From IMG/VR virus record IMGVR_UViG_2602041671_000010: a stretch of DNA of 12,969 nt. One strand, 5' to 3'. This DNA comes from a virus (Duplodnaviria; Heunggongvirae; Uroviricota; Caudoviricetes). Shown piece after piece: positions 1-12,969 of this stretch. The notes under the pieces were generated by a model that did not search any database, had not been told where the DNA came from, and worked only from the letters and a program-made list of their open reading frames with translations. The position numbers and the translations under genes are program-made. Each line of letters opens with the position of its first letter. Position 1 is the stretch's first letter.

Positions 1-463
1 ATGTCGATATGGGGATTCCCATATCGGGAACCCTACCGGATTTTTTTCCGGTTAACAGTTAATCAGGCTGGTGGGCTTTACATACCCTTGATCACCGTAA
101 TGATGATCCAGATGTGCACCTTTTCCACCAATGGCGGAAAAGCTCCAACCGTAACGATGATCGCTATGGTTGCCTCGATGGTCTGCGTGGTCATTATGAC
201 CATTCAGCCAGTGACCTTAATCAGAATTTTTCGCTAAAAAATGACGTTGGCCACGTCATCCGGAAAGCACAAAATCACGTCGATTTTTAATGAACGGTTA
301 AACCGTCTTTTTGTCACGGTGTGTCACTGGTTGTCACTCTCCGTCACGATTGAGGTGGTGGTCATTCTGCCCGACCGCGCATTTTTGCGCTATCGGGAAT
401 ATAAAACAGTTACCGCCGTCATTCAGCCAGCGCAATTTTGAGCTTTGCTTTAATCTCAGTGAG

Positions 464-745
464 TTACCGCCGTAACCGCTCCGGCTTCTTCCAGTGGTAC
501 GTGATTTTCTCCTTCTCCCGATACATCTCCACGCGGCGACGGTATGCCAGCAACTCAAGGACTCTGGTTCGTATGTTGCGCATATCCACGCCGTTAAGCT
601 CAATACCATCACGGCGCATCACCTCAGCAACCACACGCGCATAATTTTCGGCGGTCACGCTGTCCGGCTGCGTGGCCTGTTCGTCAGCCTGCTGGCTGAT
701 TCCGGCAACGCGACGGATTAATCGCAGTAGTTCGGCTTCTGTCAT
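464..745 (-). CDS. hypothetical protein (93 aa) immediately downstream of terL
   Basis: ORF in track; ATG at 745 preceded by GAGGT Shine-Dalgarno about 7 nt upstream; 13 nt after the TerL stop; no recognisable motifs. Confidence 0.5.
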   Translation of the reverse strand: MTEAELLRLIRRVAGISQQADEQATQPDSVTAENYARVVAEVMRRDGIELNGVDMRNIRTRVLELLAYRRRVEMYREKEKITYHWKKPERLRR

Positions 746-758
746 GCTGCTGACCTCA

Positions 759-2420
759 TTACACCCCGCTAAATTCTTCCAGTTTCTGGCGGTGGCTGTC
801 GCTTATATCAAAAGCAAAATCCTCATGCTCTGCCTGGAATGTACCAAACGCCATCAGCGCCGCCACGCTCGGGTCTATCTTGTTCGGTGATTTTTTCTTG
901 TTCGGCTTGATATTGGCGTTCGCGTCACTCTGCATCACGACGTTACTCATCGACCAGGACAACACCGGATCGCCACGATGCACAATCACCCTGCGGTTAA
1001 CAAAAACTTCGAACGATTTCGCCGCCGGACTGAATCTGAGGTAGGTTTGCGGGAACGGCTCCACCTCAAAACCAGCCCCCTGTAATTGCGTCCTGAGATG
1101 CGTGGCGTTCCACGTATCAAAGCCCACCAGCCTGATATTAAATTTCTCCGCATCCTGCATGATGTCATCTCTGATCCGGTCGTAATCAATGCAGTCACCT
1201 GGCGTTGTGCGTATCCAGCCCGCTTTAGCCCACTGGCGATAGACAGCGCGGTTTTTATTGGCGGGGTTCTGTAGCTGGAACTCCGGCAGATAATGACGGG
1301 AAACCAGCATGATATTTTTACCGACCGGAAAGGCATAGCACACGCTGGAAATATCGCTGGTTGATGATAAGTCCAGCCCCGCGTAACACTCCTGCCCGTG
1401 TAAATCTTCCTCCGTGAACGTTCCGGCACACTCAGCCCATGCGCCGTTACCCATCCACGGGGTAGCCCCCTGGCACCAGATATTAAATCGCTTTGTCATC
1501 ATCTCCACCCATTGCGACGGAATACCCCGCGCTTTCTGGATGGTTGAGGCCAGTTTTTCACGATCCACGGAAACATCGATGTTAGGGTTAGCCTTTATCC
1601 ACATCGCCGGATCATCAACCTCGTTTTCGTCGTCCAGCTCGTAAATCAGCACAAAAATTGAATCGTTGACCTCTTCGCCGTCCAGGATCTGGCAGCAATA
1701 ATCATAGTGCTGTTTACAGGTTGAAACGACGTTACTGCCCGATGTGGTAATGGCAAATAACAGCCCTTCGGGACGTGCGCCCATCCCCAGCTCAAGCGCG
1801 GAATAAACGCCGTTATCGGGGTGTAGGTGGTATTCGTCCACGATGGAAAGGCTTGGGTTTGTGCCCTCGATGGTTGCCGCTTTTGCTGCCAGCGGCTTTA
1901 ACAGGCTGTTGCTTTTCGGGTGCATCACCTTGTGGGCCTGAATATTCACCCGCCTGCGTAACGGTCGGGATAAAAGGCACATCTGACGCGCATCATCAAA
2001 AACGATCCGCGCCTGGTCACGGCTCACCGCTGCGGTGTAAATATCCTGCTGCCCGTTCTCCATAATCAGAAACCAGTTAGCCAGAATCGCGGCGGTCGTG
2101 GATTTCGCATTTTTGCGCGGCACTTCGATAAAGGCGCTCGTGTATTTGCGCCGTCCGGTGGCCTTAACCTTAAAGCCGAGGATGCACGCAAAGGCGAACT
2201 GCTGCCACGGCTCCAGCTCAATGGGTCTGCCACGCATCGGCCCTTTTACGTGCAGGCACACCCTGGAAAAGGCAATAAACCGCTCCACAACCTCACGATC
2301 GAACGTGTAAAGGGGGCTTTCAAGGTCCGAAAAGTACCGTTTAACGGCCTGTTTCAGCCGTTTACAGGCCGGAATTTTGCCCGTTTTTACGTCTTCTGCG
2401 TACTTATTCCAGGCGGTCAA
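759..2420 (-). CDS. terL: terminase large subunit (553 aa)
   Basis: Long ORF of typical TerL size; P-loop-like segment VPRKNAKSTTAA near the N-terminus and acidic C-terminal half consistent with ATPase plus nuclease domains; start overlaps the TerS 3' end by 17 nt as in coupled terminase genes. Confidence 0.88.
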   Translation of the reverse strand: MTAWNKYAEDVKTGKIPACKRLKQAVKRYFSDLESPLYTFDREVVERFIAFSRVCLHVKGPMRGRPIELEPWQQFAFACILGFKVKATGRRKYTSAFIEVPRKNAKSTTAAILANWFLIMENGQQDIYTAAVSRDQARIVFDDARQMCLLSRPLRRRVNIQAHKVMHPKSNSLLKPLAAKAATIEGTNPSLSIVDEYHLHPDNGVYSALELGMGARPEGLLFAITTSGSNVVSTCKQHYDYCCQILDGEEVNDSIFVLIYELDDENEVDDPAMWIKANPNIDVSVDREKLASTIQKARGIPSQWVEMMTKRFNIWCQGATPWMGNGAWAECAGTFTEEDLHGQECYAGLDLSSTSDISSVCYAFPVGKNIMLVSRHYLPEFQLQNPANKNRAVYRQWAKAGWIRTTPGDCIDYDRIRDDIMQDAEKFNIRLVGFDTWNATHLRTQLQGAGFEVEPFPQTYLRFSPAAKSFEVFVNRRVIVHRGDPVLSWSMSNVVMQSDANANIKPNKKKSPNKIDPSVAALMAFGTFQAEHEDFAFDISDSHRQKLEEFSGV

Positions 2421-2760
2421 GCTCGTCCTCTTCTTCTGTTTCCGGTGGATTTTTACGGCGGCTTATCGGGTCAAAACCGAGCAAGGAGGCCATTTTTATC
2501 ATCACTCTTTCAGCGTCGGATTTTGCGCTTAATGCGGGGTTTCTGCTCTCGCCGCCCTGACTGTTAACAATGCTGAACCCGCGCGCCGCAAGGTCTGCAA
2601 CGGCTTTCCGGTAAATGGAGTAGTTGACACAATACAGTTCCAGATTGCTCCAGTCGGCGGGGGTCAGGTCTCCCCGTTCCGCAAGCTGCCGCGATTTTTC
2701 CCGCCACTGCTTCACGGCGATGTCATCCAGGTAGGCGGGGGCTTTCGGTGGTCTTGCCAT
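2404..2760 (-). CDS. terS: terminase small subunit, P27-like family (118 aa from ATG 2760; ORF track extends to 2805)
   Basis: N-terminus MARPPKAPAYL resembles the GRPPKP-type start I recall for P27-family TerS; lies directly upstream of and overlapping terL; neither candidate start has a clear SD, so the start is uncertain. Confidence 0.72.
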   Translation of the reverse strand: MARPPKAPAYLDDIAVKQWREKSRQLAERGDLTPADWSNLELYCVNYSIYRKAVADLAARGFSIVNSQGGESRNPALSAKSDAERVMIKMASLLGFDPISRRKNPPETEEEDELDRLE

Positions 2761-2884
2761 GCTTATTTTTTTCGCCAGATTATTTTTCAAAAAATTCCCG
2801 TGCATAAAAATTTGAGGAGGCGTTCGGTGCCCGGCGGGGTCGGGTTTGTCCTGAAAACGCCCCCCACCCCGTCATACAGCCTCA

Positions 2885-3067
2885 TCAGCGATTGCGGAAA
2901 CATTCCATAACCTCGCGGTCACGGTCGGTTAATCGCTTCGCTGTGATGCGTTCTGCGCGTCCTGACGCTTTATCTTTATGCCCTGTTTCCTGTGTCTTCC
3001 ATGCGTCACGCTGCCTTATAAGTCCACGGATAAGGCGGTTTTGTTCCCGCTCATTCATCAGCGTCAT
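2885..3067 (-). CDS. small basic hypothetical protein (60 aa) between HNH and terS; may not be real
   Basis: ATG at 3067 in the frame of track ORF 2885..3289; highly charged helical-looking sequence; weak RBS; sits in a 245-bp HNH-terS gap that may instead hold a cos site. Confidence 0.3.
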   Translation of the reverse strand: MTLMNEREQNRLIRGLIRQRDAWKTQETGHKDKASGRAERITAKRLTDRDREVMECFRNR

Positions 3068-3491
3068 ACATCCAGTTATTGCGGTTAGCGGCCCGTTCTT
3101 CCTCTTCACGAAATCCACCTGCGGCACGCTTGCTTTTTGTTGCCGGATCAAGCCATTTCGTTTTCTGGTTATGACACGCCTGGCACAATGGTTGATGGTT
3201 CCATTCGGGCCAGAAGAGAACATCATCACCGCCATTAATCGGGATAATGTGATCCACCACCACGGCGGGCGTATATATCCCCTTCTCAAGGCATCGCACG
3301 CATAACGGGTTTTTACTCAGATACATGGCGCGGTATTTGTCCCACTGTCTGGAATATCCACGCGCGCGGCGGTGTCCTCGTCTGGCATCCTCTGCACGCC
3401 ATGCCGCCCGCCTGTGCTCCTCACACTTGCCGGATTTAACGCGCCTGTTACAGCCTGGTTCTGTGCATCGTCTTAATGGTTGCCACGGCAT
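3051..3491 (-). CDS. HNH endonuclease (146 aa), terminase-associated
   Basis: Cys pairs and catalytic-type motif: CNRRV...C, CVRC, VDHIIPINGG, QPLCQACHNQK; located immediately upstream of terS-terL as in HK97-like cos phages; start overlaps the stop of the upstream connector gene. Confidence 0.88.
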   Translation of the reverse strand: MPWQPLRRCTEPGCNRRVKSGKCEEHRRAAWRAEDARRGHRRARGYSRQWDKYRAMYLSKNPLCVRCLEKGIYTPAVVVDHIIPINGGDDVLFWPEWNHQPLCQACHNQKTKWLDPATKSKRAAGGFREEEERAANRNNWMYDADE

Positions 3492-3787
3492 CAGTACACC
3501 CCCACATCACGGTAAGCCGTCCAGAGTGCGCCAATCGTCATGGGTACGCGTGTTTTTGCGTTATCCGCGACAATCTGGCGATTCTCATACAGGTGAGCGA
3601 TAAACATCATGCAGCCAATCTTTATGGCTGGCGTGAACTCCAGCCCGTCATCAAAGCGCCTGCCTATGTGTATCTGGCACGCCTCAAGCGATGCGGCAAT
3701 GTATCCGCTGATTAACTGGTCTTCCTCGTCTCCATCGATACGGCAATGGAGTTTCACTTCTTCCAGGGTGATAAGTTCTTCTGTCAT
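3491..3787 (-). CDS. head-tail connector protein, gp6-like (98 aa)
   Basis: Size, position between head closure gene and HNH, and overall sequence character typical of phage gp6-like connector proteins; assignment by recognition, not search. Confidence 0.65.
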   Translation of the reverse strand: MTEELITLEEVKLHCRIDGDEEDQLISGYIAASLEACQIHIGRRFDDGLEFTPAIKIGCMMFIAHLYENRQIVADNAKTRVPMTIGALWTAYRDVGVY

Positions 3788-4122
3788 TTTTCCGCGCCCT
3801 CACGACAAAGAATTTCAAGGCGTGTCCTGGCGACATCCGGCAACGGCTGCCCGATGATATTCAGTACACGCCCCGCCAGCGGCCCCGTACTGACCTTTAT
3901 CCGGCTGGTGGCGTTGATGTCCTTCCGGTACCGTATCCAGATCCTTACGGTACCAATCGCCAGCTCTGCGCCCGATGAAATGGCCTCCTTGCTGCTGATC
4001 ATGTTCACGCTTGCCCAGAGTGTGTGACCGTCCTCCCACGTTTCGAGTATTTCGCCCGTCATGGCTCTGGTCTGTTTCAGGGTCTGAATCGTTATCCTGT
4101 CACGCAGTCGCCCTATGTTCAT
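3784..4122 (-). CDS. head closure / head-tail joining protein (about 112 aa; likely start ATG 4122, track ORF extends to 4164)
   Basis: MNIGRLRDRITIQ N-terminus is typical of head-tail joining family proteins; ATG 4120-4122 overlaps the portal stop (ATGA-type overlap), whereas the track start would overlap portal by 46 nt. Confidence 0.68.
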   Translation of the reverse strand: MNIGRLRDRITIQTLKQTRAMTGEILETWEDGHTLWASVNMISSKEAISSGAELAIGTVRIWIRYRKDINATSRIKVSTGPLAGRVLNIIGQPLPDVARTRLEILCREGAEK

Positions 4123-5330
4123 TCCGGTTTTTCTCCCTCGCTGATTTTTACTTCCTGTTTCCATGCCTGACTGAACTCATCACCACCATCACGCGGTGAC
4201 AGTCCTTCACGTTCGCGGGCTTCGTTCGGGCACATAACGCCGGATTTGATGCCGCGCTCATAGGTGGCAAAGCGTTCGCCAGGTGTGGCCCGTAACAGGT
4301 CCGCGCTGTCAAACTCCACCTGATACCGGATACCAGGTACAGGCGAGGCCACCAGCAGGGCGTTTTTTATCTGCTGCTCAAAGTTCGCCAGCCACGGGCG
4401 CATCGTCATGGTGAGAAATGCGCGGCTTGCCTCGCTGAAATTGCTGTAGGTGCTGTTGCTGTATTCCTGCAAAAAAATCGGCGAGACGTTGAACATTCGG
4501 GCGATGTCTTCAATGGTAAAGCGACGGGAGGCCAGCCATTCAGCATCCTGATTACTCATGCCCAGCTGCTGATAGCTCATCCCCCCTTCAAGGATGGGCG
4601 TTTTTCCGGCGTTTCTGGCCCCTTTGTAGCGTTCCAGTGCGGCTAATGCCTGTTTGCCCTTCACGCCGTCCAGCCATTCGCCTGACGTGATAACCCCTGC
4701 CGCCATCATGCCATCACGCATCACGCTCGCGCCGTGGCGTTGTTGGGCCAGCCCAAGCCCCAGCGATTCGCGGCAGATGGTTACAGGTGAGCGCCCCATA
4801 AAGCCGTCATCCGTGGAGTAACGAAGGTGAAGTACTTCCCATGGTAAATAGTTGTGGGTGTTTCCGGTGTAGGCGTCAGTGATGCAATAGCGCCAGTTGT
4901 GTTCGCCTGTCTGCTCCACGTTCACCGACTGCGGCGGGTAAGGATGTAAAGCCGCCGGAAAACCATCACGCCCCCACTGAATAACCGCATAAGCATTACC
5001 GTTTAACAGGCAGTGGCGGATCATCATTCGCTTAAACTGGTAGGGAGTCTGCCACGCGTTCGGGCGCTCGTTGAGGATGTGATCGACCGGATGAGAATCA
5101 AGCCACTCGCGGGCCTCCTTCCCCTTCTCATTGCGTACCAGGTACAGGTAACACGGCATAGTAGCCACCGCCTCAGAGATGACCGTGACGGCGTTCATGA
5201 CGGCGGGCAGTGATTCCGCTGTCCCCGATGATACGTACTCACCCGCCCCCGTGTTCGATGTGCCAGCCAGCGCCATAAATTCATCAAGCGTCATGCTGCG
5301 CTGCTCTTTTTTTCTTCTGAAAGGCCACAT
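4119..5330 (-). CDS. portal protein, HK97-like family (403 aa)
   Basis: Size and position between prohead protease and head closure genes; sequence has the overall character of HK97-family portal proteins. Confidence 0.85.
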   Translation of the reverse strand: MWPFRRKKEQRSMTLDEFMALAGTSNTGAGEYVSSGTAESLPAVMNAVTVISEAVATMPCYLYLVRNEKGKEAREWLDSHPVDHILNERPNAWQTPYQFKRMMIRHCLLNGNAYAVIQWGRDGFPAALHPYPPQSVNVEQTGEHNWRYCITDAYTGNTHNYLPWEVLHLRYSTDDGFMGRSPVTICRESLGLGLAQQRHGASVMRDGMMAAGVITSGEWLDGVKGKQALAALERYKGARNAGKTPILEGGMSYQQLGMSNQDAEWLASRRFTIEDIARMFNVSPIFLQEYSNSTYSNFSEASRAFLTMTMRPWLANFEQQIKNALLVASPVPGIRYQVEFDSADLLRATPGERFATYERGIKSGVMCPNEAREREGLSPRDGGDEFSQAWKQEVKISEGEKPE

Positions 5331-5331
5331 A

Positions 5332-5904
5332 TCACACCCCCGCTAAATCCACCCACCAGCGGCGATTATCCGCACGCGGCATTTTTTCGGGGTGCTGCTC
5401 ATACAGGGAACGGCGGGCCAGCTCCACGCCGGAATCAGGGTAAGCCGGAACGGATGTAACGGTAATTTCGTACAGTTCCGCCACCAGCACGGTGCGCACG
5501 CATGGTTCTGTTGTGGTATCCCATACATCCTTACGGGAACGAAAGCCAAAGCTCATGCCGGATATATCACCACGTTTAACCAGTTCGATAACGTCCCGCC
5601 CTGTGCTGGTATCCGGTGGGGTCAGTTCAAAGCGTAACCCTGTTTCGTCCTCTTCCAGTTTCAGCGTGCCGGAACGGGTACGCCCCAGTAACATGCTGTG
5701 GTCATGCTCATACAGGCCGCGAACGTCATTACCCGCTGCAAGCCATTCAGTAAACGCTCCCCGCTGGAATTTTTCGTAAAACTCACCCCATAACAGTTCT
5801 GAAAGCTTATCCCAGCGAACAACGTAGCCCGTCAGCGTACCGGCTCCGCTGGTGGTGATTTCCGATGACCGGATTTCCATACTCTTCATAATTTTTTCAC
5901 CCAT
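5332..5904 (-). CDS. prohead maturation protease, HK97 family (about 185-190 aa; start 5904 or 5889)
   Basis: Small protein between capsid and portal genes, 2 nt before the portal ATG; size and position match the HK97 prohead protease; ATG 5889 has a better SD (GGTGA) than 5904. Confidence 0.82.
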   Translation of the reverse strand: MGEKIMKSMEIRSSEITTSGAGTLTGYVVRWDKLSELLWGEFYEKFQRGAFTEWLAAGNDVRGLYEHDHSMLLGRTRSGTLKLEEDETGLRFELTPPDTSTGRDVIELVKRGDISGMSFGFRSRKDVWDTTTEPCVRTVLVAELYEITVTSVPAYPDSGVELARRSLYEQHPEKMPRADNRRWWVDLAGV

Positions 5905-5933
5905 AAAACACTAAAGGGGCTTTTAAGCCCCTT
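5905..5933 (-). terminator. stem-loop between capsid and protease genes (GGGGC/GCCCC) with a U-rich tail; likely partial terminator or stabiliser
   Basis: Inverted repeat GGGGCTT/AAGCCCC at 5916-5931; on the minus-strand RNA it is followed by UUUAGUGUUUUAU. Confidence 0.5.
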
Positions 5934-5943
5934 CTGTATGCTG

Positions 5944-7100
5944 TTAATCGTCGTCCTGTGGCAGTTCCAGAATCTTGATCGCGTTCGAATCCACCACGCC
6001 ACCGCCTAAATATTTCTGCGTGAAAATTTTGATGAAGCCCGGCTCTGTGAGGTTGTCCGGTCTGGTGCGAACACCTGTTTCGTGATCAACAATGTAGTAA
6101 CCGCGCTTGAAGTCACCCAGGGCAATAACGTTATCAGGCATAAACTCCAGATATTCGACCGGAAGGCCCAGCAACGTATCAGGATCACCCGCCTGTAAAC
6201 GGTCGCGCCAGATGTAATCACCGTTCGCGTTCTTCACCTTCTGAAGTTTTGCCGCCGTCGTGGAGTTAACCACCCAGACCGCGTTTTTGCGGTATTTTTT
6301 ACGTAATGCAAATTTCAGGTCGATCAGCGGGTCCGCAGATGTCCACGCCAGAGATTCGGAAGGTTTAATTACCTGCAACGTACCAAAATCACGCTCTTTG
6401 TCGTTCTTCTCTGCACGGGGTACGGATAAAAAGCCTTTTGCTTTTTTGTCACCGTCGCCCACAACCAGATCGCTTTCTTCGGTTTCCGTGAAGGTGTCGC
6501 CAATCTCACCCGTCAGCCATGAAAGGATGTCCACATCGGAAAAATCCACGATTTCCTGTGTGGTGCGCGGGTACGCATAGACCGGATACAGCTTAATGCT
6601 CACCTCGTTAATCTGCGGGGTGCTGGTCTGTTCGCGTGCCTTACCCTCTTCACCGTGGTTAACGGTCGCACCGCCAGCGGAAACAAGCTGCTTAAACTCG
6701 TTGCTGCTGATTTTTTCACGGTACAGATGCGGCGCATGGTGGACTCATCCACCAGCATTCGCATGATTTCGGTGTTCAGTTCGGGGATAACGGTATAACC
6801 ACCATCAGCGGGAACGCCTGTACTTAATGCGCGGGTTTCACCTGTCAGAATGTAGCTGCGTAGTTCTGCGGGGTCAGTGGTCTGGCTGCTTTTACCTGGC
6901 TTGCTGCGCTCTTCGTCTGCAATGGCTTCAAGGCGGGAAATGTCTTTATCGAGGGATTCAGCTTTAGCGCGTAATTCGTCAAATTTTGCGCCCTCAGCAT
7001 CGTTAAGACTGCGGTTTTCTTTTTCCGCGTTCTCCAGCATGTCGCGCATCTGATTTTTAATGGCGGTTTTCTGCTGGCGTAATTCGATTATTCTCGGCAT
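5944..7100 (-). CDS. major capsid protein, HK97 fold, interrupted by a 1-nt frameshift in an A6 run (6711-6716); N-terminal coiled-coil delta domain
   Basis: N part (track ORF 6600..7145 from ATG 7100): coiled-coil then GETRALSTGVPADGGYTVIPELNTEIMRMLVDESTMRRICTV. C part (track ORF 5944..6603): my own translation of the same frame upstream of 6603 gives ISSNEFKQLVSAGGATVNHGEEG, continuing into LYPVYAYP...VVGDGDKKAKGFL, matching HK97-family conserved blocks. The two parts join if the run were A7. Confidence 0.8.
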
Positions 7101-7140
7101 AAAAAAAAGTCCTGGGGTTAAGTAAGGAACTCCAGGACGC
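7101..7140 (-). terminator. intrinsic terminator abutting the major capsid ATG
   Basis: Minus-strand RNA GCGUCCUGGAG-loop-CCCCAGGAC followed by U8, then AUG directly. Confidence 0.65.
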
Positions 7141-7321
7141 GGCAAAAACTCAACCGTTTTTCATAAGGGAATCAGCAATCGCACCGATCGTTTTCCCGCC
7201 TGGTAATGAATATTGGCGAGCACATTAACAGGCGGGAAAGTGGCCCCAGCGTCCTGGCACCACGGGCGAGAATAATCATGATTCAGTTCGGGTAAAATAT
7301 GCCGATCCGCTCAGTGAACAA
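7141..7321 (-). promoter_or_regulatory. candidate late promoter (-35 TTGTTC, 16-nt spacer, -10 TATTTT at 7294-7321) and roughly 185-nt structured leader
   Basis: Promoter-like hexamers read on the minus strand; leader contains an 11-bp stem (UUUCCCGCCUG/CAGGCGGGAAA) and a CCAGGACGC element complementary to the terminator 5' arm. Confidence 0.4.
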
Positions 7322-7360
7322 CGTGGAACAACCACGAACAAATAATTTACAAAAAATAAC

Positions 7361-7383
7361 AAAAAGCCGGATTGCTCCGGCTG
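7361..7383 (-). terminator. intrinsic terminator (GCCGGA-TTGC-TCCGGC plus U-run on the minus strand)
   Basis: Perfect 6-bp GC-rich stem with tetraloop; A5 on the plus strand equals a U-run 3' of the hairpin on the minus-strand RNA; downstream of ORF 7393..7617. Confidence 0.7.
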
Positions 7384-7392
7384 TATGGGTGC

Positions 7393-7617
7393 TCAGTCCC
7401 TGATCCCTTTCAGAAATTCTATCAATGCATCTGTCTGTTCAGGATTTACCGCCAGCATTTCACCGGATAGCGCGCAACGAACAAAACCATGATGATCCTT
7501 TTCAATCAGCGCCCCCGTTTCCAGGAATGCTCGGTAATCAGTGATGTTCATCGTCTCCATGTTGTCAGCATGGTATTTATCACGCTGTTTTAATATCTCA
7601 TCAAATTTCGTCGGCAT
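7393..7617 (-). CDS. hypothetical small protein (74 aa) in a terminator-insulated monocistronic unit
   Basis: ATG 7617 preceded by AGAGGA SD about 7 nt upstream; flanked on both sides by near-identical intrinsic terminators; no recognisable motifs. Confidence 0.6.
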   Translation of the reverse strand: MPTKFDEILKQRDKYHADNMETMNITDYRAFLETGALIEKDHHGFVRCALSGEMLAVNPEQTDALIEFLKGIRD

Positions 7618-7712
7618 TGTTTTTTCCTCTGTTGTGTCTGTTTGTTTCAGATAGTAACTATGCCGGACCGTGACGAAAAGCCAGTAGTGCGCCATACCAT
7701 TTCAAATGACGC

Positions 7713-7736
7713 AAAAAAAGCCGGATTGCTCCGGCT
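7713..7736 (-). terminator. intrinsic terminator, near-identical copy of the 7361..7383 hairpin
   Basis: AGCCGGA-TTGC-TCCGGCT with A7 on the plus strand (U7 tail on the minus RNA); downstream of ORF 7759..8007. Confidence 0.7.
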
Positions 7737-7758
7737 GCGTGGTGTGGTTCTGATATTC

Positions 7759-8007
7759 CTACTCAGCTAATTTGCTCAGCCCCATGTCTGCATAAGTGCG
7801 ATTTACTGCATTTCTCAGGTCTGCGTAGTTCTCCGTTGGCGGCTCCGGTGGCCTCTGTGCCTTCCTGGAACATTCCAGCCGTCGCATCGTAACCTGATGC
7901 CGTTCCTTGTCTGTCTCCACCAGTTGCATGACTTCACCCCATCGCGCCGACGCCCTCCGGTAAAAGCCTTTTGCCTCGAGTTCCTCCGCTATGCGGTCAT
8001 GTACCAT
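7759..8007 (-). CDS. hypothetical protein (82 aa from ATG 8007; track ORF extends to 8127)
   Basis: ATG 8007 has a GAGGGGG SD at good spacing and avoids overlap with ssb; upstream starts overlap ssb; followed by an intrinsic terminator. Confidence 0.5.
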   Translation of the reverse strand: MVHDRIAEELEAKGFYRRASARWGEVMQLVETDKERHQVTMRRLECSRKAQRPPEPPTENYADLRNAVNRTYADMGLSKLAE

Positions 8008-8017
8008 CGTCACCCCC

Positions 8018-8428
8018 TCAGAACGGAATACCGTCACCGTAAGGGTCATCGCCTCCCGCTGGTGGCTGATTACCCTGTGTGCCTGTGGTTTTGCGTCTGT
8101 TCCCGCCTGGACGTGCCGCGCGGGCACTGATTACGCTGTCTGCAATAACCTGATACCCCTGCCGTGTTTCCCCGTTCTGTCCGGTCCACTGGCTGATCTG
8201 CATGTTACCCGCCACGGTCAGGAGTTCACCTTTGCGGTGCCTTGCCAGTGCTTCGGCCTGTCTGCCAAATGCCAGGACGGATAACCACATCGTCACCGTT
8301 CCGTCATCTGCCTGGCTGCACGGAAGGGGGACCGCCATACTCGCCATCGTCATTTGTGTACCCTTGCTGGTGGTCTTTAACTGCGGGTCAGCCACCAGCC
8401 GCCCGTAAGCTGCAATTTGTGCTGTCAT
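8018..8428 (-). CDS. ssb: single-stranded DNA-binding protein (136 aa)
   Basis: OB-fold-like N-terminal region, Gly/Pro/Gln-rich linker and acidic C-terminal tail ending DDPYGDGIPF (compare the DDDIPF tail of bacterial SSB); GAGGTGG SD 4 nt upstream of ATG. Confidence 0.8.
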   Translation of the reverse strand: MTAQIAAYGRLVADPQLKTTSKGTQMTMASMAVPLPCSQADDGTVTMWLSVLAFGRQAEALARHRKGELLTVAGNMQISQWTGQNGETRQGYQVIADSVISARAARPGGNRRKTTGTQGNQPPAGGDDPYGDGIPF

Positions 8429-8505
8429 ATTGCCACCTCAGTGAAGCGATCCGGCGTTGTTCTTTTTCATCTTTTTCATCTCTTCCATCATTTTTTCAGT
8501 GAGCA

Positions 8506-8751
8506 TTACGCACTGAAAACCCATTTTTTGATGTCTACGGGTTTCATGCCTTTGTCAGTGGATATCACAGGCAGAATATCCTGATACACATCGCGGTCAG
8601 GGTAACTAAGCACACAAAGCGCCCATGATGCCACGGGTGAGGATCCTTCGTCTGTTTCAACCCACCAGCCTGGTGTAGCTGCGCTTATTTGCAGAATCGT
8701 GATCCGTCCGTTGTGCTTGTAAAATTTTTCACCAAATTTTGCTTCGCTCAT
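8506..8751 (-). CDS. hypothetical protein (81 aa)
   Basis: Strong SD (GGAGAGGTGG); ATGA overlap with the stop of the upstream ORF suggests translational coupling. Confidence 0.55.
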   Translation of the reverse strand: MSEAKFGEKFYKHNGRITILQISAATPGWWVETDEGSSPVASWALCVLSYPDRDVYQDILPVISTDKGMKPVDIKKWVFSA

Positions 8752-8990
8752 GATTCCACCTCTCCGGTTTTAACGTTGATTGTTGTTACCTGTTCCGCTT
8801 CGGCAATCTCCCGCTCTGTCAGCGTGGCAAAATTTGCCGCCGTCGTGGTCATGAATGCGCTTATCAGTTCGGGATGTGCTTTCGCGTATCCTTCCCCCGC
8901 GTGGCGGTCTATTACCCTGATTGCCACCTTTAAGGCGTGCTCTGTCATGTCTAACGCTTTATATTTCGGCCCTGTTCTGTCTCTGCGCAT
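8748..8990 (-). CDS. hypothetical protein (about 80 aa; track ORF starts at 9017)
   Basis: ATG 8990 preceded by GAGGAG SD at 9-nt spacing; the 5' end of the track ORF overlaps the iteron array. Confidence 0.5.
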   Translation of the reverse strand: MRRDRTGPKYKALDMTEHALKVAIRVIDRHAGEGYAKAHPELISAFMTTTAANFATLTEREIAEAEQVTTINVKTGEVES

Positions 8991-9000
8991 TTTGGTTATC

Positions 9001-9203
9001 TCCTCACTCATGCTCACTTTTACACCTCACTTTTTAAAGCGTCTCGCTTCGTCTCAGTTGATATTTTTTGATGCTTTATGTGCGTGTTTCATAAGGATTT
9101 TTTTACTCCTCACTTTTGAGCATGTATACAGGTGAGAAAGTGAGTAATCGTGTTAATATTTTGTAAAAACCTCACCATTACTCACTTTTGCTACTCACTT
9201 TTT
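9001..9203. repeat. iteron array, putative replication origin
   Basis: Five direct copies of CTCACTTTT (9013, 9026, 9109, 9181, 9194), two extra CTCAC cores (9003, 9171), an inverted pair GTGAGAAAGTGAG (9132-9144) and an AT-rich stretch (9055-9105), immediately 3' of the replication gene stop. Confidence 0.6.
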
Positions 9204-10599
9204 ACAGTGGTCCTACATCATCACCATCAATGTAAATCACGGCGTCTTTTTCCAGTTTGGCTAACCATCGCCGCATATTTTTCACGTCATACCCAAGCCG
9301 TTTCATGTCATCACGTAACAGCGGGATCGTGCACTTGTCGCCGTTCTGTGTGCGTGAACGGATGCACCCCCATAGTGCGGTATGGTTTTCCGTCTTGTTG
9401 CCTGCCTCCTCGATGCGCTCCAGTTCAACGGGAGGGCGCGGCTTATCCACCACCACCAGCGACGTGATTAACTCCCCGTCAGCGTCGGTAAACAGCTCCA
9501 CCACGCGTAAGTCATATGCGGCTTCTTTGAGTTCCTCCGCGTCCTTCATTTTGGTGCATGAGATAACCAGCGCTTCGCTTCCTGCGTCCTCCCTGCGTAT
9601 CCGGTATTCAGCATCCAGCGAAGCACGAAATGCACTGGAACCGCGCGCGCCTTTCGTCTCATCCTTGCCGGAATGGTGAACCACCAGCACCGTGGCCCCT
9701 GTGCGCCGTTTAAGCTCGTCACACCCACGGATAAACGCCCCCATATCACGGGAATCATTTTCATCATTGCCACCAAAGCAACGCGCCAGAGTATCAAGAA
9801 TAATCATGCGTACAGGTTTACCCGTTTCCCGCTCCACCTGACGGGCAGCGATAACCAGTTCATCAACATCAAGCGGGACAGCCGGAAAAACTGGACGGTT
9901 TACCAGATACAGATTTTTCACCTGCTCACCGTGCACAACCTCCCAGGCTTTTACACGACGCGGAACGCCGATACCGCCTTCACCAACCACATAGAGAACA
10001 GCGCCATGCGCCACCCTGCGGCCTCCCCACTGGCGGCCCGTGGAAACGTGACACGCCCACGAACCCGCAAGGAATGATTTATAGGAACCGCTTGCCCCGT
10101 ATATGCTGCATAGCGACGATGCCGGAATAATCCCCTTTACCACGTAATCTAATTGCGTGTCGTATCCGGCAGATCCAACGCTCATCGGTAGCGTGGTTTT
10201 TCGCTGGTGGTGTTCTTCCCCTGGCTTTTTCCCCCGCTCCCGTTCCAGATATTCGCGCCAGTTCTCCCGCTTCTGGCTGTGTATCCCTTCGGGGTAATAA
10301 TTCGCATCAGTTACGCCCGCCGCCGCCAGCTTGTGCGCAATGGCATTAATATTTGATGGCCTGATGTGGCCTGCCTTGTACAGCCGGACACAATAGCGCC
10401 CCTCGTCGATGATTCTCAGGTCTGCCAGTTCATCCAGTTGATCATCAGCCAGCACAATGGGAGGCACATTATCGCCAGCCAGTCGCCCGTCCTGTTCCTG
10501 CCACTGTTTCGCATGTGCCCACGCATCACTACCCGCAAAAATGATGACTTCGGTCATCTTGTCGTAAGGCTGTTTTTTTAAGTTCGGTGCGCTTTTCAT
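9202..10599 (-). CDS. replication protein: RecA-like P-loop ATPase (AAA_25/RepA-like), putative primase/helicase (465 aa)
   Basis: Deviant Walker A GASGSYKS, Walker B-like RMIILDT, HHSGK motif typical of RepA/DnaB-like ATPases; ATGA overlap with the upstream gene; iteron array immediately after its stop. Confidence 0.75.
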   Translation of the reverse strand: MKSAPNLKKQPYDKMTEVIIFAGSDAWAHAKQWQEQDGRLAGDNVPPIVLADDQLDELADLRIIDEGRYCVRLYKAGHIRPSNINAIAHKLAAAGVTDANYYPEGIHSQKRENWREYLERERGKKPGEEHHQRKTTLPMSVGSAGYDTQLDYVVKGIIPASSLCSIYGASGSYKSFLAGSWACHVSTGRQWGGRRVAHGAVLYVVGEGGIGVPRRVKAWEVVHGEQVKNLYLVNRPVFPAVPLDVDELVIAARQVERETGKPVRMIILDTLARCFGGNDENDSRDMGAFIRGCDELKRRTGATVLVVHHSGKDETKGARGSSAFRASLDAEYRIRREDAGSEALVISCTKMKDAEELKEAAYDLRVVELFTDADGELITSLVVVDKPRPPVELERIEEAGNKTENHTALWGCIRSRTQNGDKCTIPLLRDDMKRLGYDVKNMRRWLAKLEKDAVIYIDGDDVGPL

Positions 10600-10895
10600 T
10601 TCTTGCCCCTGAATCCGTTAATCATGTTTTTCATCTTCTGAATATTGGCGCGTGCTTTCTCCCTGCAGGTGGGCACGTTATGCGGCGCGGTCTGTACCAG
10701 AGAAAAATCACGCCGGAACTGATAAACAGGCATCACGCAATCATATTCGTAGCCTTCACGACGGTAGGTGATGCGCCGTTCTGCCACGCCTTTAATCGTT
10801 ACCGTACCGCCGTAGTTATCACGGAAAATATCGCCGGGGCGGATTTCAGGCCGAGAGAAGTCACTGGCAGTAAAGCCAGAATTTTTCTTTTTCAT
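10596..10895 (-). CDS. small conserved hypothetical protein (99 aa), possibly DUF4222-like
   Basis: ORF translationally coupled to the replication gene (ATGA overlap at 10596-10599); DUF4222 assignment is from memory of P4-like replication modules and is unverified. Confidence 0.45.
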   Translation of the reverse strand: MKKKNSGFTASDFSRPEIRPGDIFRDNYGGTVTIKGVAERRITYRREGYEYDCVMPVYQFRRDFSLVQTAPHNVPTCREKARANIQKMKNMINGFRGKK

Positions 10896-11086
10896 GGTTT
10901 TTATTTTCCTGTCAGTGATTCAAGTTTTATTCCGGCACGAATACAGGCCTCAGAAAAAAAGCCAGAGAACCAACAACCTCATTATTTCTAAGGCGGCATT
11001 GTGATTTCACTTTCCCTTTATCGAGAAATATCAAAACGCGTCCCGTATAATCTGACGGCACATTAAGAACTACAGGTAAGTGCGCT

Positions 11087-11281
11087 TCATAATTGTGCAT
11101 GGTGCGCCCCCTGACGAATACGGGCGGCGAACACAGCAACACAACCGTACGGGCAACGGTTACGCGCTTCGCGTTCCGTCCAGGCGGTTACGTGGATGAT
11201 TTGATGGTCTGACGCGCCAAAGGCAATAAAGCGCCAGATAAAGGCTGTTTGAGAATGTACGAGGGCAGGGGTAGTAGCCAT
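11087..11281 (-). CDS. Icd-like small protein (64 aa), paralog 2
   Basis: ATG 11281 with strong SD GAGGAGG 8 nt upstream; motifs TAFIWRF, TEREAR, VFAARI resemble what I recall of Icd-like host cell division inhibitor proteins. Confidence 0.5.
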   Translation of the reverse strand: MATTPALVHSQTAFIWRFIAFGASDHQIIHVTAWTEREARNRCPYGCVAVFAARIRQGAHHAQL

Positions 11282-11650
11282 GTTGGCAGCCTCCTCAGTG
11301 TGGTTAAGATAACCGCCACGCAAAAGGCTAATTTCGCTGGTGGCGGACTGTACAGGGTTAGCCTTACCGGACACTGAAGAAACCGGCGCGGATTGCTCCG
11401 CCCCCGTACAGCCCACCATTGATAAGGTGTGACTATGCGGCACAAAAAAACACGCGGGGCGCGTGCTGTGCGCTTCAGTTGTTTTCAGGAGGCTAATCCC
11501 GACACCCGTTTTATGAGGTGCGCGGGAATCATAGCTATTTTCGACACTGGCGATCAACTGGTTTTTTTCTCCGATATTCAGGGCCAGAAAACGCCACACA
11601 AAGGCAGTTTGTGTGTGTACAAGGTGTGGTATATGATTTACAGCAACCAT
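11282..11650 (-). CDS. Icd-like paralog 1; ATG 11650; no in-frame stop before paralog 2, so nominal product is the 187-aa read-through
   Basis: ATG 11650 with AGGAG SD 5 nt upstream; N-terminus LVHTQTAFVWRFLA parallels paralog 2; an intrinsic terminator-like hairpin (11441-11465) lies inside the reading frame. Confidence 0.4.
11441..11465 (-). terminator. terminator-like hairpin between the two Icd-like paralogs (CACGCG-CCC-CGCGUG plus U7)
   Basis: Minus-strand reading CACGCGCCCCGCGTGTTTTTTT; 6-bp stem with short loop followed by a T-run. Confidence 0.45.
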
Positions 11651-11740
11651 AACGGCTCCTAGTTTACGTTGTTGGTTAGAAGCCCCGTTACTGCTCCTAC
11701 AGTGCGGGGTTTCGTCGTTTCAACACCTTGCCTAAATAAG

Positions 11741-11792
11741 GTGTTGAACACCAATTTAAATCGAGGTGTTAAACACGTCAAGTGTTGAACAC
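11741..11792. promoter_or_regulatory. three inverted-repeat operator sites GTGTT-N-AACAC in the divergent control region, overlapping a candidate promoter for the RHH gene
   Basis: GTGTTGAACAC at 11741-11751 and 11782-11792, GTGTTAAACAC at 11766-11776; -35 TTGAAC (11785-11790) and -10 CATACT (11807-11812) at 16-nt spacing. Confidence 0.55.
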
Positions 11793-11841
11793 TTATTTTT
11801 TTCCTGCATACTGCATTTGTTTTTTATGAGGGGTGCTCAAC

Positions 11842-12021
11842 ATGGCGACAAAAGCAGTAAACGCAAAATCACAAACAGTTGCGGCAAGGGTTCCACATGA
11901 AGTTATGAACAATGTTGAGGCGGTAAAAATGCCCGGCGAAAGTACAGGGCAGTTTGTTACAGCTGCATTAAAGCGGGAAGTTGAATACCGCCAGCGTCGC
12001 AAGGCCAAAGAATCAGAATAA
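11842..12021 (+). CDS. Arc/Mnt-like ribbon-helix-helix DNA-binding protein (59 aa)
   Basis: ATG 11842 with GAGGGG SD 8 nt upstream; N-terminal beta-strand-like TVAARVPHEV followed by two short helices; upstream inverted-repeat operators. Confidence 0.6.
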   Translation: MATKAVNAKSQTVAARVPHEVMNNVEAVKMPGESTGQFVTAALKREVEYRQRRKAKESE

Positions 12022-12025
12022 TCAC

Positions 12026-12070
12026 CATCAGCGCCGTGGCGTGAGGTACTACGGCGCATTGCTTTACAGG
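12026..12070 (+). repeat. conserved 45-bp hairpin spacer, copy 1 (copy 2 at 12711..12755)
   Basis: CATCAGCGCCGTGGCGTGAGGTACTACGGCGCATTGCTTTACAGG; two-mismatch copy after the second RHH gene; contains a GCGCCGT/ACGGCGC stem. Confidence 0.6.
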
Positions 12071-12078
12071 GCAGTACC

Positions 12079-12306
12079 ATGACCAACAACACACTATCAC
12101 CAATACAAGACACGCAGACGCAAGAAGATGAAATCATTCGGCAAAGGCAGTTAGAAACCTGTGCTCGCCTTGAAGCCGAACTGGCTAATCCTCTGAATAT
12201 CCAACTAATACCGATAGAAATGAAACCTGGACTATTCGCGTTGGAGGCATTTTTAGCAAGCTGCCCACGGCGGCTAAAGTCCCGTAAGAATCGCCCGCCA
12301 GGATGA
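12079..12306 (+). CDS. hypothetical protein (75 aa) downstream of the first RHH gene
   Basis: ORF in track; preceded by a conserved 45-bp hairpin spacer; N-terminus MTNN parallels the second cassette's downstream gene (MTNK); weak SD. Confidence 0.45.
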   Translation: MTNNTLSPIQDTQTQEDEIIRQRQLETCARLEAELANPLNIQLIPIEMKPGLFALEAFLASCPRRLKSRKNRPPG

Positions 12307-12439
12307 GTACACAAAACCGAACTATGAAACGGATTATTCCGTTTCCGGGGCGTTTGTGTGTGTATAAAGAGTAAGCTATGCTCTTTTATAGCCATAATCG
12401 TTACCTCAATTAATGGTTTGGTTAGACGCCCCGTATGTG

Positions 12440-12476
12440 TTCCCATCACTGCGGGGCGTTGTTTTTTGTGCTAGTT
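12440..12476 (+). terminator. intrinsic terminator between the two plus-strand cassettes
   Basis: ACGCCCCG...CGGGGCGT 8-bp stem followed by TGTTTTTTGTG. Confidence 0.55.
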
Positions 12477-12482
12477 GTGTGT

Positions 12483-12508
12483 AATGTGTATATACACATA
12501 AACACATT
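12483..12508. promoter_or_regulatory. nested palindromic operator upstream of the second Arc-like gene
   Basis: 16-bp perfect palindrome ATGTGTATATACACAT (12484-12499) containing a TATATA -10-like element, flanked by outer inverted arms AATGTGT/ACACATT. Confidence 0.6.
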
Positions 12509-12526
12509 ATATGGAGTGTAATTGAC

Positions 12527-12706
12527 GTGTCAACACACAAAAATGAAAGGCGTGGTAATCCTCCTTTCCAGTTCCGTTTAGATCCTGACTTACGGGAAAA
12601 GATGGAAAAAGCACAACAACAAGACGGTGATGACTCTTTAGCAGCTTGGATAAAACGAATAATCCGAAAAGAATTACAGCAACGCGGTATTGAACCCAAA
12701 GAATAA
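12527..12706 (+). CDS. Arc-like ribbon-helix-helix repressor (59 aa, GTG start)
   Basis: Translation NPPFQFRLDPDLREKMEKAQQQDGDDSLAAWIKRIIRKELQQRG closely resembles the Arc repressor pattern (PQFNLRWPREVLDLVRK...); GGAG SD 10 nt upstream; 16-bp perfect palindrome just upstream; below the 60-aa cutoff so absent from the ORF track. Confidence 0.7.
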   Translation: MSTHKNERRGNPPFQFRLDPDLREKMEKAQQQDGDDSLAAWIKRIIRKELQQRGIEPKE

Positions 12707-12763
12707 AAAACATCAGCGCCGTGGCGTGAGGAACTCCGGCGCATTGCTTTACAGGTACACACA

Positions 12764-12969
12764 ATGACCAATAAAGAATCAACCAATACACCATCGCAAA
12801 AAACGAACAGAGAGCACGAAAATATGGCGCTCGAGCATGAATCAGAAAGATTCGCTCCATGCGCTTTTGTCCTTGATGAGTTTCTAAAAAAATATTCACG
12901 TTCTGAACGGATGAAAATGGCAGCACAATACGGCCCCAACAAGCAAGGTAATTGCCCACCAGCCTGATA
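12764..12969 (+). CDS. hypothetical protein, 3' end beyond the window (partial)
   Basis: ORF in track runs to the window edge; same position and MTN start as 12079..12306 in the first cassette. Confidence 0.4.

Follow-up and report, generated by a model that had tools for sequence, protein, structure and literature searches.

The viral record IMGVR_UViG_2602041671_000010 of IMG/VR comprises 12,969 nucleotides (nt), which are referred to here as the window and in which all positions are counted from the first letter. With high confidence, the window covers the inner 13 kb of a capsid-forming phage-inducible chromosomal island (cf-PICI) of 15.2 kb, which is integrated at the phoQ/roxA site of an O104:H21 Shiga-toxigenic Escherichia coli and is a mosaic sister of the prototype island EcCIEDL933. 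It corresponds to the terminal 12,969 nt of the draft contig AUQB01000025.1 (locus L017, assembly GCA_000464915.1, 78,827 nt), where window position x equals L017 12421-x and window position 12969 coincides with the end of the contig. Among ten loci with an identical large terminase subunit (TerL), only this contig has both the six-T run in the capsid gene and the left end of the window. The draft belongs to E. coli O104:H21 ATCC BAA-182 from the Montana outbreak of 1994, which was sequenced at 30x on an Ion Torrent PGM and assembled de novo (PMC3790099). Two closed genomes of the same outbreak clone, 94-3024 (NZ_CP009106.2) and ATCC BAA-178 (NZ_CP023541.1), were available for comparison, and the window matches each of them at 99.5%.

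Head, packaging and replication genes

Gene families were assigned by profile searches with Pfam, NCBIfam and PHROGs, and protein identities refer to the homologues of EcCIEDL933 from E. coli O157:H7 EDL933 (10.1101/2022.09.08.507074, 10.1101/2025.02.11.637232). The head and packaging module contains the following features, where aa stands for amino acids.

759-2420, minus strand: TerL with ATPase and nuclease domains (PF03354, PF20441); 98.0% identity
2404-2760, minus strand: small terminase subunit TerS of the P27 family (PF05119, TIGR01558); 100% identity, WP_000113645.1 in both islands
2761-2884, no strand: G+C-rich spacer between the HNH-side genes and terS, a candidate cos region by its position only
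2885-3067, minus strand: conserved hypothetical protein of 60 aa (phrog_3173); 100% identity
3051-3491, minus strand: HNH endonuclease, a packaging cofactor of HK97-type cos terminases (PF01844); 99.3% identity
3491-3787, minus strand: gp6-like head-tail connector (PF05135, TIGR01560); 100% identity
3784-4122, minus strand: head completion or closure protein, named 'head-tail adaptor' in the nomenclature used for cf-PICIs (PF05521, TIGR01563); 100% identity
4119-5330, minus strand: portal protein (PF04860, E=2e-90); 99.5% identity
5332-5904, minus strand: prohead serine protease S78 (PF04586); 96.8% identity
5944-7100, minus strand: HK97-type major capsid protein, frame broken at the T run 6705-6710 (PF05065 on both fragments)

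With one T restored, the capsid gene encodes a protein of 385 aa which has an identity of 100% with its counterpart in the closed genome and of 99.2% with that in EcCIEDL933. The capsid protein matches PDB entry 9gyi ('Major head protein', 385 aa) with E=7e-255. The replication module lies further upstream with respect to the minus strand.

8018-8428, minus strand: single-stranded DNA-binding protein, SSB (PF00436); 82.4% identity to the SSB of EcCIEDL933
8438-9011, minus strand: two small conserved hypothetical proteins of 104 aa and 87 aa (phrog_27268, phrog_1231), the first truncated by a homopolymer deletion at about 8523
9013-9200, no strand: replication origin in which six AAGTGAG iterons, five of them direct and one inverted, lie on either side of an A+T-rich stretch, from a repeat scan
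9202-10599, minus strand: RepA-like AAA_25 initiator/helicase (PF13481, E=5e-44; helicase-primase matches in PHROGs), with an N-terminal domain common with PICI primases
10596-10895, minus strand: DUF4222 protein (PF13973), always directly upstream of rep in these islands

The window has six copies of AAGTGAG, each of them in the 188-nt spacer just downstream of rep; 1.0 would be expected, and none of 200 shuffles reaches six. This clustering goes beyond chance, and the iteron origin is therefore regarded as real.

The original prediction, made from the sequence alone, had read a replication protein, an iteron origin, SSB, capsid, protease, portal, head closure, connector, HNH, TerS and TerL on the minus strand. 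All of these could be identified in that order with Pfam and NCBIfam, and the profile searches that had been proposed as a check (Pfam, PHROGs) agree with the listed families. The order of capsid before portal before terminase, which had been called unusual, was likewise observed; it equals the order capsid-protease-portal-connectors followed by hnh-terS-terL, which is the published hallmark of proteobacterial cf-PICIs (10.1101/2022.09.08.507074), so that the proposed comparison with described cf-PICIs gave the same arrangement. For the extent of 464-10895 the gene content was right and the boundaries were not, as the unit continues in both directions, with non-coding DNA at 1-463 and a region with an icd-like gene, a C4 RNA and operators at 10896-12969. 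The single capsid gene of the prediction does not hold for the window as given, in which the gene is split by a frameshift that had escaped notice.

The gene content agrees with the definition of a cf-PICI. The island encodes its own HK97-type capsid protein and head maturation protease (PF05065, PF04586; TIGR01554), the capsid frame being broken in the draft and intact in the closed genomes, as well as its own HNH, TerS and TerL proteins (PF01844, PF05119, PF03354, PF20441). The portal, adaptor and connector genes (PF04860, PF05521, PF05135), markers which set cf-PICIs apart from PICIs in the SatelliteFinder model (PMC10085698), are all found. A classical PICI, which uses helper capsids and for which portal, connector and adaptor are forbidden, was rejected because all three genes are present. 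The RepA-like AAA_25 helicase together with the iteron origin represents the replication module of its own (primase/replicase and origin) expected for such an element. The 'forbidden' tail and holin/lysis genes are absent throughout the island, as judged from the ORFs (open reading frames) of the window, from phoQ on the source contig and from roxA in the sister genomes.

An argument for a capsid-forming satellite that borrows helper tails, as had been predicted, is the similarity to the experimentally characterised EcCIEDL933. Both islands occupy the roxA/phoQ site, have the same gene order and belong to the same size class (15.4 kb for EcCIEDL933, 15.2 kb here). Identity amounts to 95.7% for the DNA from the 93-aa gene through SSB (window 462-8439), to 96.8-100% for the proteins of head and packaging and to 100% for the two proteins that dock the tail. 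At the integrase/alpA end, the sister genome and the prototype agree at 92%. By analogy with EcCIEDL933, the prediction is thus supported.

Frameshifts, flanks and alternative readings

Over window 731-12969 the comparison with closed genome 94-3024 revealed no substitution and four one-base deletions, in the capsid T run 6705-6710 and at about 8523, 10953 and 11795. All four fall into homopolymers of at least seven bases, and 4 of the 15 such runs are affected. Three of the deletions break ORFs, namely the capsid gene (at about 6710), the gene for the 104-aa protein (about 8523) and the gene for a 66-aa protein (about 10953). The T6 run splits the capsid gene into the ORFs 6600-7145 and 5944-6603, whereas the relatives have an uninterrupted ORF with T7. 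Ion Torrent sequencing is prone to homopolymer undercalls. Because all of these changes are homopolymer losses, no other differences from the intact closed genome exist in this part and the draft is a 30x Ion Torrent assembly, the frameshifts are interpreted as sequencing errors, and the one in the capsid gene is very probably such an error. A programmed or real frameshift of the capsid gene was rejected in view of the uninterrupted T7 relatives and the homopolymer nature of all four indels.

The same observations bear on the possibility that the window represents a genuinely decayed cf-PICI, a dead island in which the capsid gene and two small genes are truly frameshifted and heads are no longer built. 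The two capsid ORFs of the window as given would fit such a decay, and gene calling on the source contig found no capsid gene. We nevertheless regard this explanation as improbable, because the losses are confined to single bases in runs of seven or more, because 12.2 kb without any substitution connect the window to closed genomes of the same 1994 clone whose genes are intact, and because undercalled homopolymers are a generally known property of the platform behind this 30x draft.

The phoQ-side end of the window is affected by a second irregularity. It comprises the following features.

1-463, no strand: terminal non-coding region on the phoQ side, with an ORF at 1-237 without protein family match
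464-745, minus strand: conserved terminal gene of 93 aa (phrog_1561), found in both cf-PICIs and classical PICIs; in many of the latter, the final gene encodes the identical protein

A divergence of 5% from the closed genome is confined to 419-745. In a search of complete genomes with window 1-900 no match above 93.9% was obtained, which led to a second island as the origin of this segment. Positions 419-745 are 100% identical to a paralogue in the PICI inserted in caiT (NZ_CP009106.2 805,171-805,497) and about 87% identical to the true cf-PICI copy. The segment is probably an assembly chimera, a collapsed repeat with a second island of the same genome, in which the assembler most likely mixed the two paralogues of the 93-aa gene. 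The O104:H21 clone holds both a classical PICI in caiT (L023, NZ_CP009106.2 804,800-815,700) and the cf-PICI of the window. The non-coding end past the 93-aa gene also contains GTTACCGCCGT-bearing repeats at about 401-432 and 455-486 (family D7). Repeats with GTTACCGCCGT or GTTACCGCGCC occur in two copies in the window and in more copies in EcCIEDL933 (L005, about 1900-2240).

Since phage-type genes make up the head and packaging module and RefSeq labels them as phage genes, a defective prophage remnant has to be considered as well, that is an HK97-like prophage which lost its tail and lysis genes by deletion and retains its head genes as relics, without a satellite lifestyle. This reading is very improbable. 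The compact 15 kb architecture, consisting of intact ORFs, integrase, AlpA, Rep with its origin and att repeats, is found again in 59 complete genomes of E. coli for the variant of the window and in 101 for the EcCIEDL933 variant. Moreover, the near-identical module of EcCIEDL933 is functional, each of its head and packaging genes being required for transfer of the island and not for transfer of the helper (10.1101/2022.09.08.507074). A 'distant' blastn search of 50,697 phage records yielded six matching records, none of which covers at least 80% of the head module; a complete phage relative of this module was not found among these records, and none of them combines the module with tail genes. 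The two best-annotated among the top matches are records of 15.3-16.5 kb which resemble satellites. The 'phage' records LR881103.1 (16,548 nt) and OR544139.1 (15,321 nt) contain related portal, capsid and terminase genes and are probably cf-PICIs deposited as phages.

The flanks were followed on both sides of the window. Past terL and the 93-aa gene, the source contig leads through an att-like repeat, located about 53-130 nt outside window position 1, into phoQ, whose stop codon lies 208 nt past window position 1, and further into phoP, purB, hflD and mnmA. On the other side the closed genomes contain three small plus-strand genes, alpA (PF05930), a tyrosine integrase gene and then roxA. Imperfect att direct repeats of 75 nt are found at 11874-11948 and 27024-27098 of the closed-genome locus L001 and delimit an island of about 15.2 kb. 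The integrase, AlpA and att repeats of a PICI-type left half were thus seen in the 99.5%-identical closed genomes, outside the window.

The original prediction had suggested such an extension and had named tail and lysis modules next to terL or beyond the regulators as the finding that would speak for an ordinary prophage. Integrase and att repeats appeared in the sister closed genomes and tail genes did not; neither the terL side, which runs into phoQ, nor the other side with alpA, int and roxA contains such modules. Within the window, the predicted lack of tail, baseplate and lysis genes was borne out, as no ORF matches a family of this kind in PHROGs or Pfam. The small unassigned ORFs showed no tail, baseplate, holin or endolysin family in PHROGs, Pfam and PADLOC, but only families of regulatory or unknown function. 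A PADLOC match to Cas8g (E=6e-4) was considered as noise and no credible defence system was detected; tRNA genes were not found in the window. A temperate tailed prophage was rejected, given that no tail or lysis modules adjoin the head module. That such modules simply lie beyond the window, which stops at the contig end, is practically excluded because the source contig runs from the terL side into phoQ-phoP-purB and the closed genomes of the same clone have small genes, alpA and int before roxA on the other side.

Regulatory region and repeat elements

Besides the modules described above, the island contains a number of small genes and putative regulatory elements.

7101-7392, minus strand: spacer upstream of the capsid operon, including 10-bp-phased ACAA repeats (ACAACGTGGAACAA at 7318-7331) as well as a hairpin terminator at 7365-7382
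7393-7617, minus strand: hypothetical protein of 74 aa (phrog_1957); 93.2% identity to EcCIEDL933
7759-8007, minus strand: PerC-family transcriptional activator (PF06069, E=1e-35)
10901-11281, minus strand: hypothetical gene of 66 aa (frameshift at about 10953) and Icd-like gene (11087-11281; NF033153)
11336-11423, minus strand: C4/CI-like RNA (Rfam RF01695, 75.4 bits, above the gathering threshold)
11445-11521, minus strand: isrK/seqA-like element (Rfam RF01394, 61.8 bits, above the gathering threshold)
11741-11792, no strand: three operator-like GTGTTCAACAC palindromes (6 strand-hits versus 0.31 expected)
11842-12021, plus strand: YlcI/YnfO-family gene (NF041551)
12527-12706, plus strand: Arc-like gene of 59 aa (PHROG match; phrog_949 and phrog_228 are assigned among the plus-strand small genes)
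12764-12967, plus strand: gene of 67 aa, from the closed-genome annotation

The C4 and isrK elements are located directly upstream of the icd-like gene, beneath an annotation as 'Ash pseudogene'. We regard most of the corresponding ORF of 187 aa (11087-11650) as spurious, since both Rfam matches overlap with it and two icd-like starts are fused in it. C4 and isrK profiles are known to pick up relatives of the P4 CI and seqA elements in some Gram-negative PICIs (PMC10111431), and the pair in the window looks like a P4-type CI RNA/seqA immunity element. An Rfam scan of EcCIEDL933 recovered neither a C4 nor an isrK element.

The spacer with the GTGTTCAACAC palindromes separates two divergent units, the icd-rep operon, which runs leftward, and the YlcI/YnfO-family gene on the plus strand. 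This layout suggests a putative divergent repressor switch, which is lacking in the prototype. The plus-strand small genes between 11842 and 12967 are accompanied by two 75-nt repeats (family D2). A perfect sigma-70 promoter (TTGACA-16-TATAAT, 12/12) on the minus strand at 12533-12506 faces the icd/rep side, and is located within a region where RefSeq has only plus-strand small genes.

The PerC-family gene is carried here by an island of a Shiga-toxigenic strain. For another E. coli PICI, PerC-like proteins encoded by the island have been linked to regulation of the LEE (locus of enterocyte effacement) pathogenicity island (PMC11773190). On the minus strand, the 74-aa and PerC genes are each followed by the same terminator hairpin (AGCCGGAGCAATCCGGCT and then a T run), at 7365-7382 and 7719-7736; the two hairpins divide the replication genes from the capsid operon.

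The ACAA repeat in front of the capsid operon (window 7318-7361) deserves separate mention. Its 10-bp-phased core ACAACGTGRAACAA is also present at both att ends and in the int-alpA spacer, at L001 11918-11931, 25691-25724 and 27068-27144, which amounts to 8 sites versus 0.66 expected in L001. In the cf-PICIs among the compared loci that cover the respective spacer, one more exact copy precedes the capsid operon by about 220 nt; in the classical PICIs among them, none was found upstream of the capsid-like gene. The repeat may serve as a binding array, of AlpA/Vis type or of integrase arm type, or represent an att-like scar. We consider it a doubtful though possible idea that the repeat either forms a Vis/AlpA-type array coupling excision to the switch-on of the capsid operon or is an att-like scar from the joining of the head module to a PICI. 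If AlpA does bind the array, it would couple excision directly to the switch-on of the capsid operon; if the internal copy is a scar, cf-PICIs would have arisen when a head-module element joined a PICI at the att site. To our knowledge, neither idea is put forward in the publications consulted.

Relation to known elements and proposed life cycle

The island differs from EcCIEDL933 only in replication and regulation, and the similarity breaks down at the replication gene. The prototype has a DUF927 primase-helicase of 710 aa and TAACCCGC-type iterons, in contrast to the RepA-like AAA_25 helicase of 465 aa and the AAGTGAG iterons of the island described here. The two replication proteins are only 21% identical, and the DNA alignment to the replication gene of EcCIEDL933 is limited to the part encoding the N-terminal end together with DUF4222 (window 10234-10905, 76%). 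The alpA-rep region differs as well, with C4 and isrK RNAs, a duplicated icd start, operator palindromes and plus-strand small genes in the island of the window and no Rfam matches in the prototype. A classical PICI that occupies this att site in O157:H7 ECP17-46 (L006) has a RepA and DUF4222 module of 90% identity, and the island of the window is therefore considered a mosaic of a classical-PICI-type replication module and the prototype head module. At least 80% of the RepA and DUF4222 module is present in 576 complete E. coli genomes. That PICIs and cf-PICIs have a common left half has been published (PMC10085698). The caiT PICI (L023) has a rep gene of the DUF927 type, as in EcCIEDL933, and the cf-PICI of the same strain has one of the RepA type; compared with the O157:H7 islands, the two replication modules have thus changed places.

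With the E. coli PICIs of the classical kind (EcCICFT073 type; L006, L023) the island has in common the type of integrase and AlpA, the att-end motif, DUF4222, SSB, PerC and the terminal 93-aa gene. These PICIs contain only a Phage_cap_E-like capsid-remodelling gene, a head decoration gene and a Nu1-type TerS and make use of helper capsids; the island of the window instead has portal, protease, HK97 capsid, connectors, HNH and TerL. The latter set is comparable to that of HK97/HK106-like cos siphoviruses, which also encode an HK97-fold capsid protein, S78 protease, portal, gp6-like connector, head closure protein, P27-type TerS with TerL, and HNH. In contrast to these phages, the island has no tail, lysis or lysogeny-switch genes and its gene order is rearranged, and the capsid is T=4 in the prototype EcCIEDL933 rather than T=7. 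At the protein level, similarity to phage homologues is for the most part less than 40% (10.1101/2022.09.08.507074).

Satellite P4 resembles the island in the C4- and isrK-family RNAs upstream of an icd-like gene and in the AlpA homologue beside int. P4 has no capsid protein of its own, remodels the capsids of P2 and replicates by means of its alpha primase-helicase, and in both its capsid and its replication it therefore differs from the island.

From the annotation and the work on EcCIEDL933 the following life cycle may be proposed. A helper phage would turn on alpA, which is located outside the window; in EcCIEDL933 induction requires alpA (10.1101/2022.09.08.507074). The tyrosine integrase would then excise the island, and the RepA-like helicase and SSB would replicate it from the AAGTGAG iteron origin. 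The late operon would supply the HK97-fold capsid protein, which is expected to be trimmed by the S78 protease and assembled on the portal of the island into T=4 heads of about 47 nm, as shown for EcCIEDL933, whose T=4 capsid has a diameter of 47.5 nm and a proteolytically matured capsid protein (10.1101/2025.02.11.637232).

By HNH, TerS and TerL, only the island's own cos DNA would be cut and packaged, in unit lengths. This was shown for EcCIEDL933, the small island-made capsids of which contain island DNA only (10.1101/2022.09.08.507074), and the DNA ends of cf-PICIs are cohesive cos ends (10.1101/2025.02.11.637232). The head-closure protein and the gp6-like connector would complete the head, which presumably joins siphovirus helper tails of the HK106 type, again as shown for the prototype: its transfer is lost with helper tail mutants and kept with helper capsid mutants (10.1101/2022.09.08.507074). 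Adaptor and connector set the tail fit, and EcCIEDL933 takes the tails of HK106 and not those of HK022 (10.1101/2025.02.11.637232). As both proteins are sequence-identical in the two islands, their tail specificity is presumed to be the same. The deviant allele of the 93-aa gene and the frameshifts that interrupt the capsid gene and two small ones would have no part in this cycle and are taken as artefacts of the Ion Torrent draft.

Several points weigh against the assignment to a functional cf-PICI. Helper induction, island-only packaging in small capsids and helper-tail-dependent transfer are all deduced by analogy, and for the island of the window induction, helper phage and transfer depend on its identity to EcCIEDL933. 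Likewise putative are excision, replication by RepA from the iterons, the placement of cos at the candidate site 2761-2884 and the functions of the additional regulatory elements. The alpA and int genes and the right att repeat lie outside the window and its contig and are known from the sister genomes only. If the homopolymer deletions were real, this copy would be unable to make capsids. Finally, the replication and regulation modules are unlike those of the prototype (Rep at 21%, the additional C4/isrK RNAs, divergent small genes), so that the induction logic and the helper range could differ.

The family, its gene order, its mechanism and its capsid structure have all been published, and an element with the site and a near-identical head module of the prototype is already known. 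The cf-PICI family was first described in 2022-23 and has hundreds of members; a survey listed 969 elements, which are present in 13% of Enterobacteriaceae genomes (PMC10085698). As a discovery the island therefore has little weight, since its family is published and the element is common. It can serve as a positive control in which a cf-PICI was correctly recognised from sequence alone, and as a caution that an apparent capsid pseudogene and an odd allele of the terminal gene are artefacts of a draft assembly. For the biology of these islands it documents a module swap: the prototype's head module is joined to replication genes of the RepA/iteron type, which a classical PICI at the same att site has as well.

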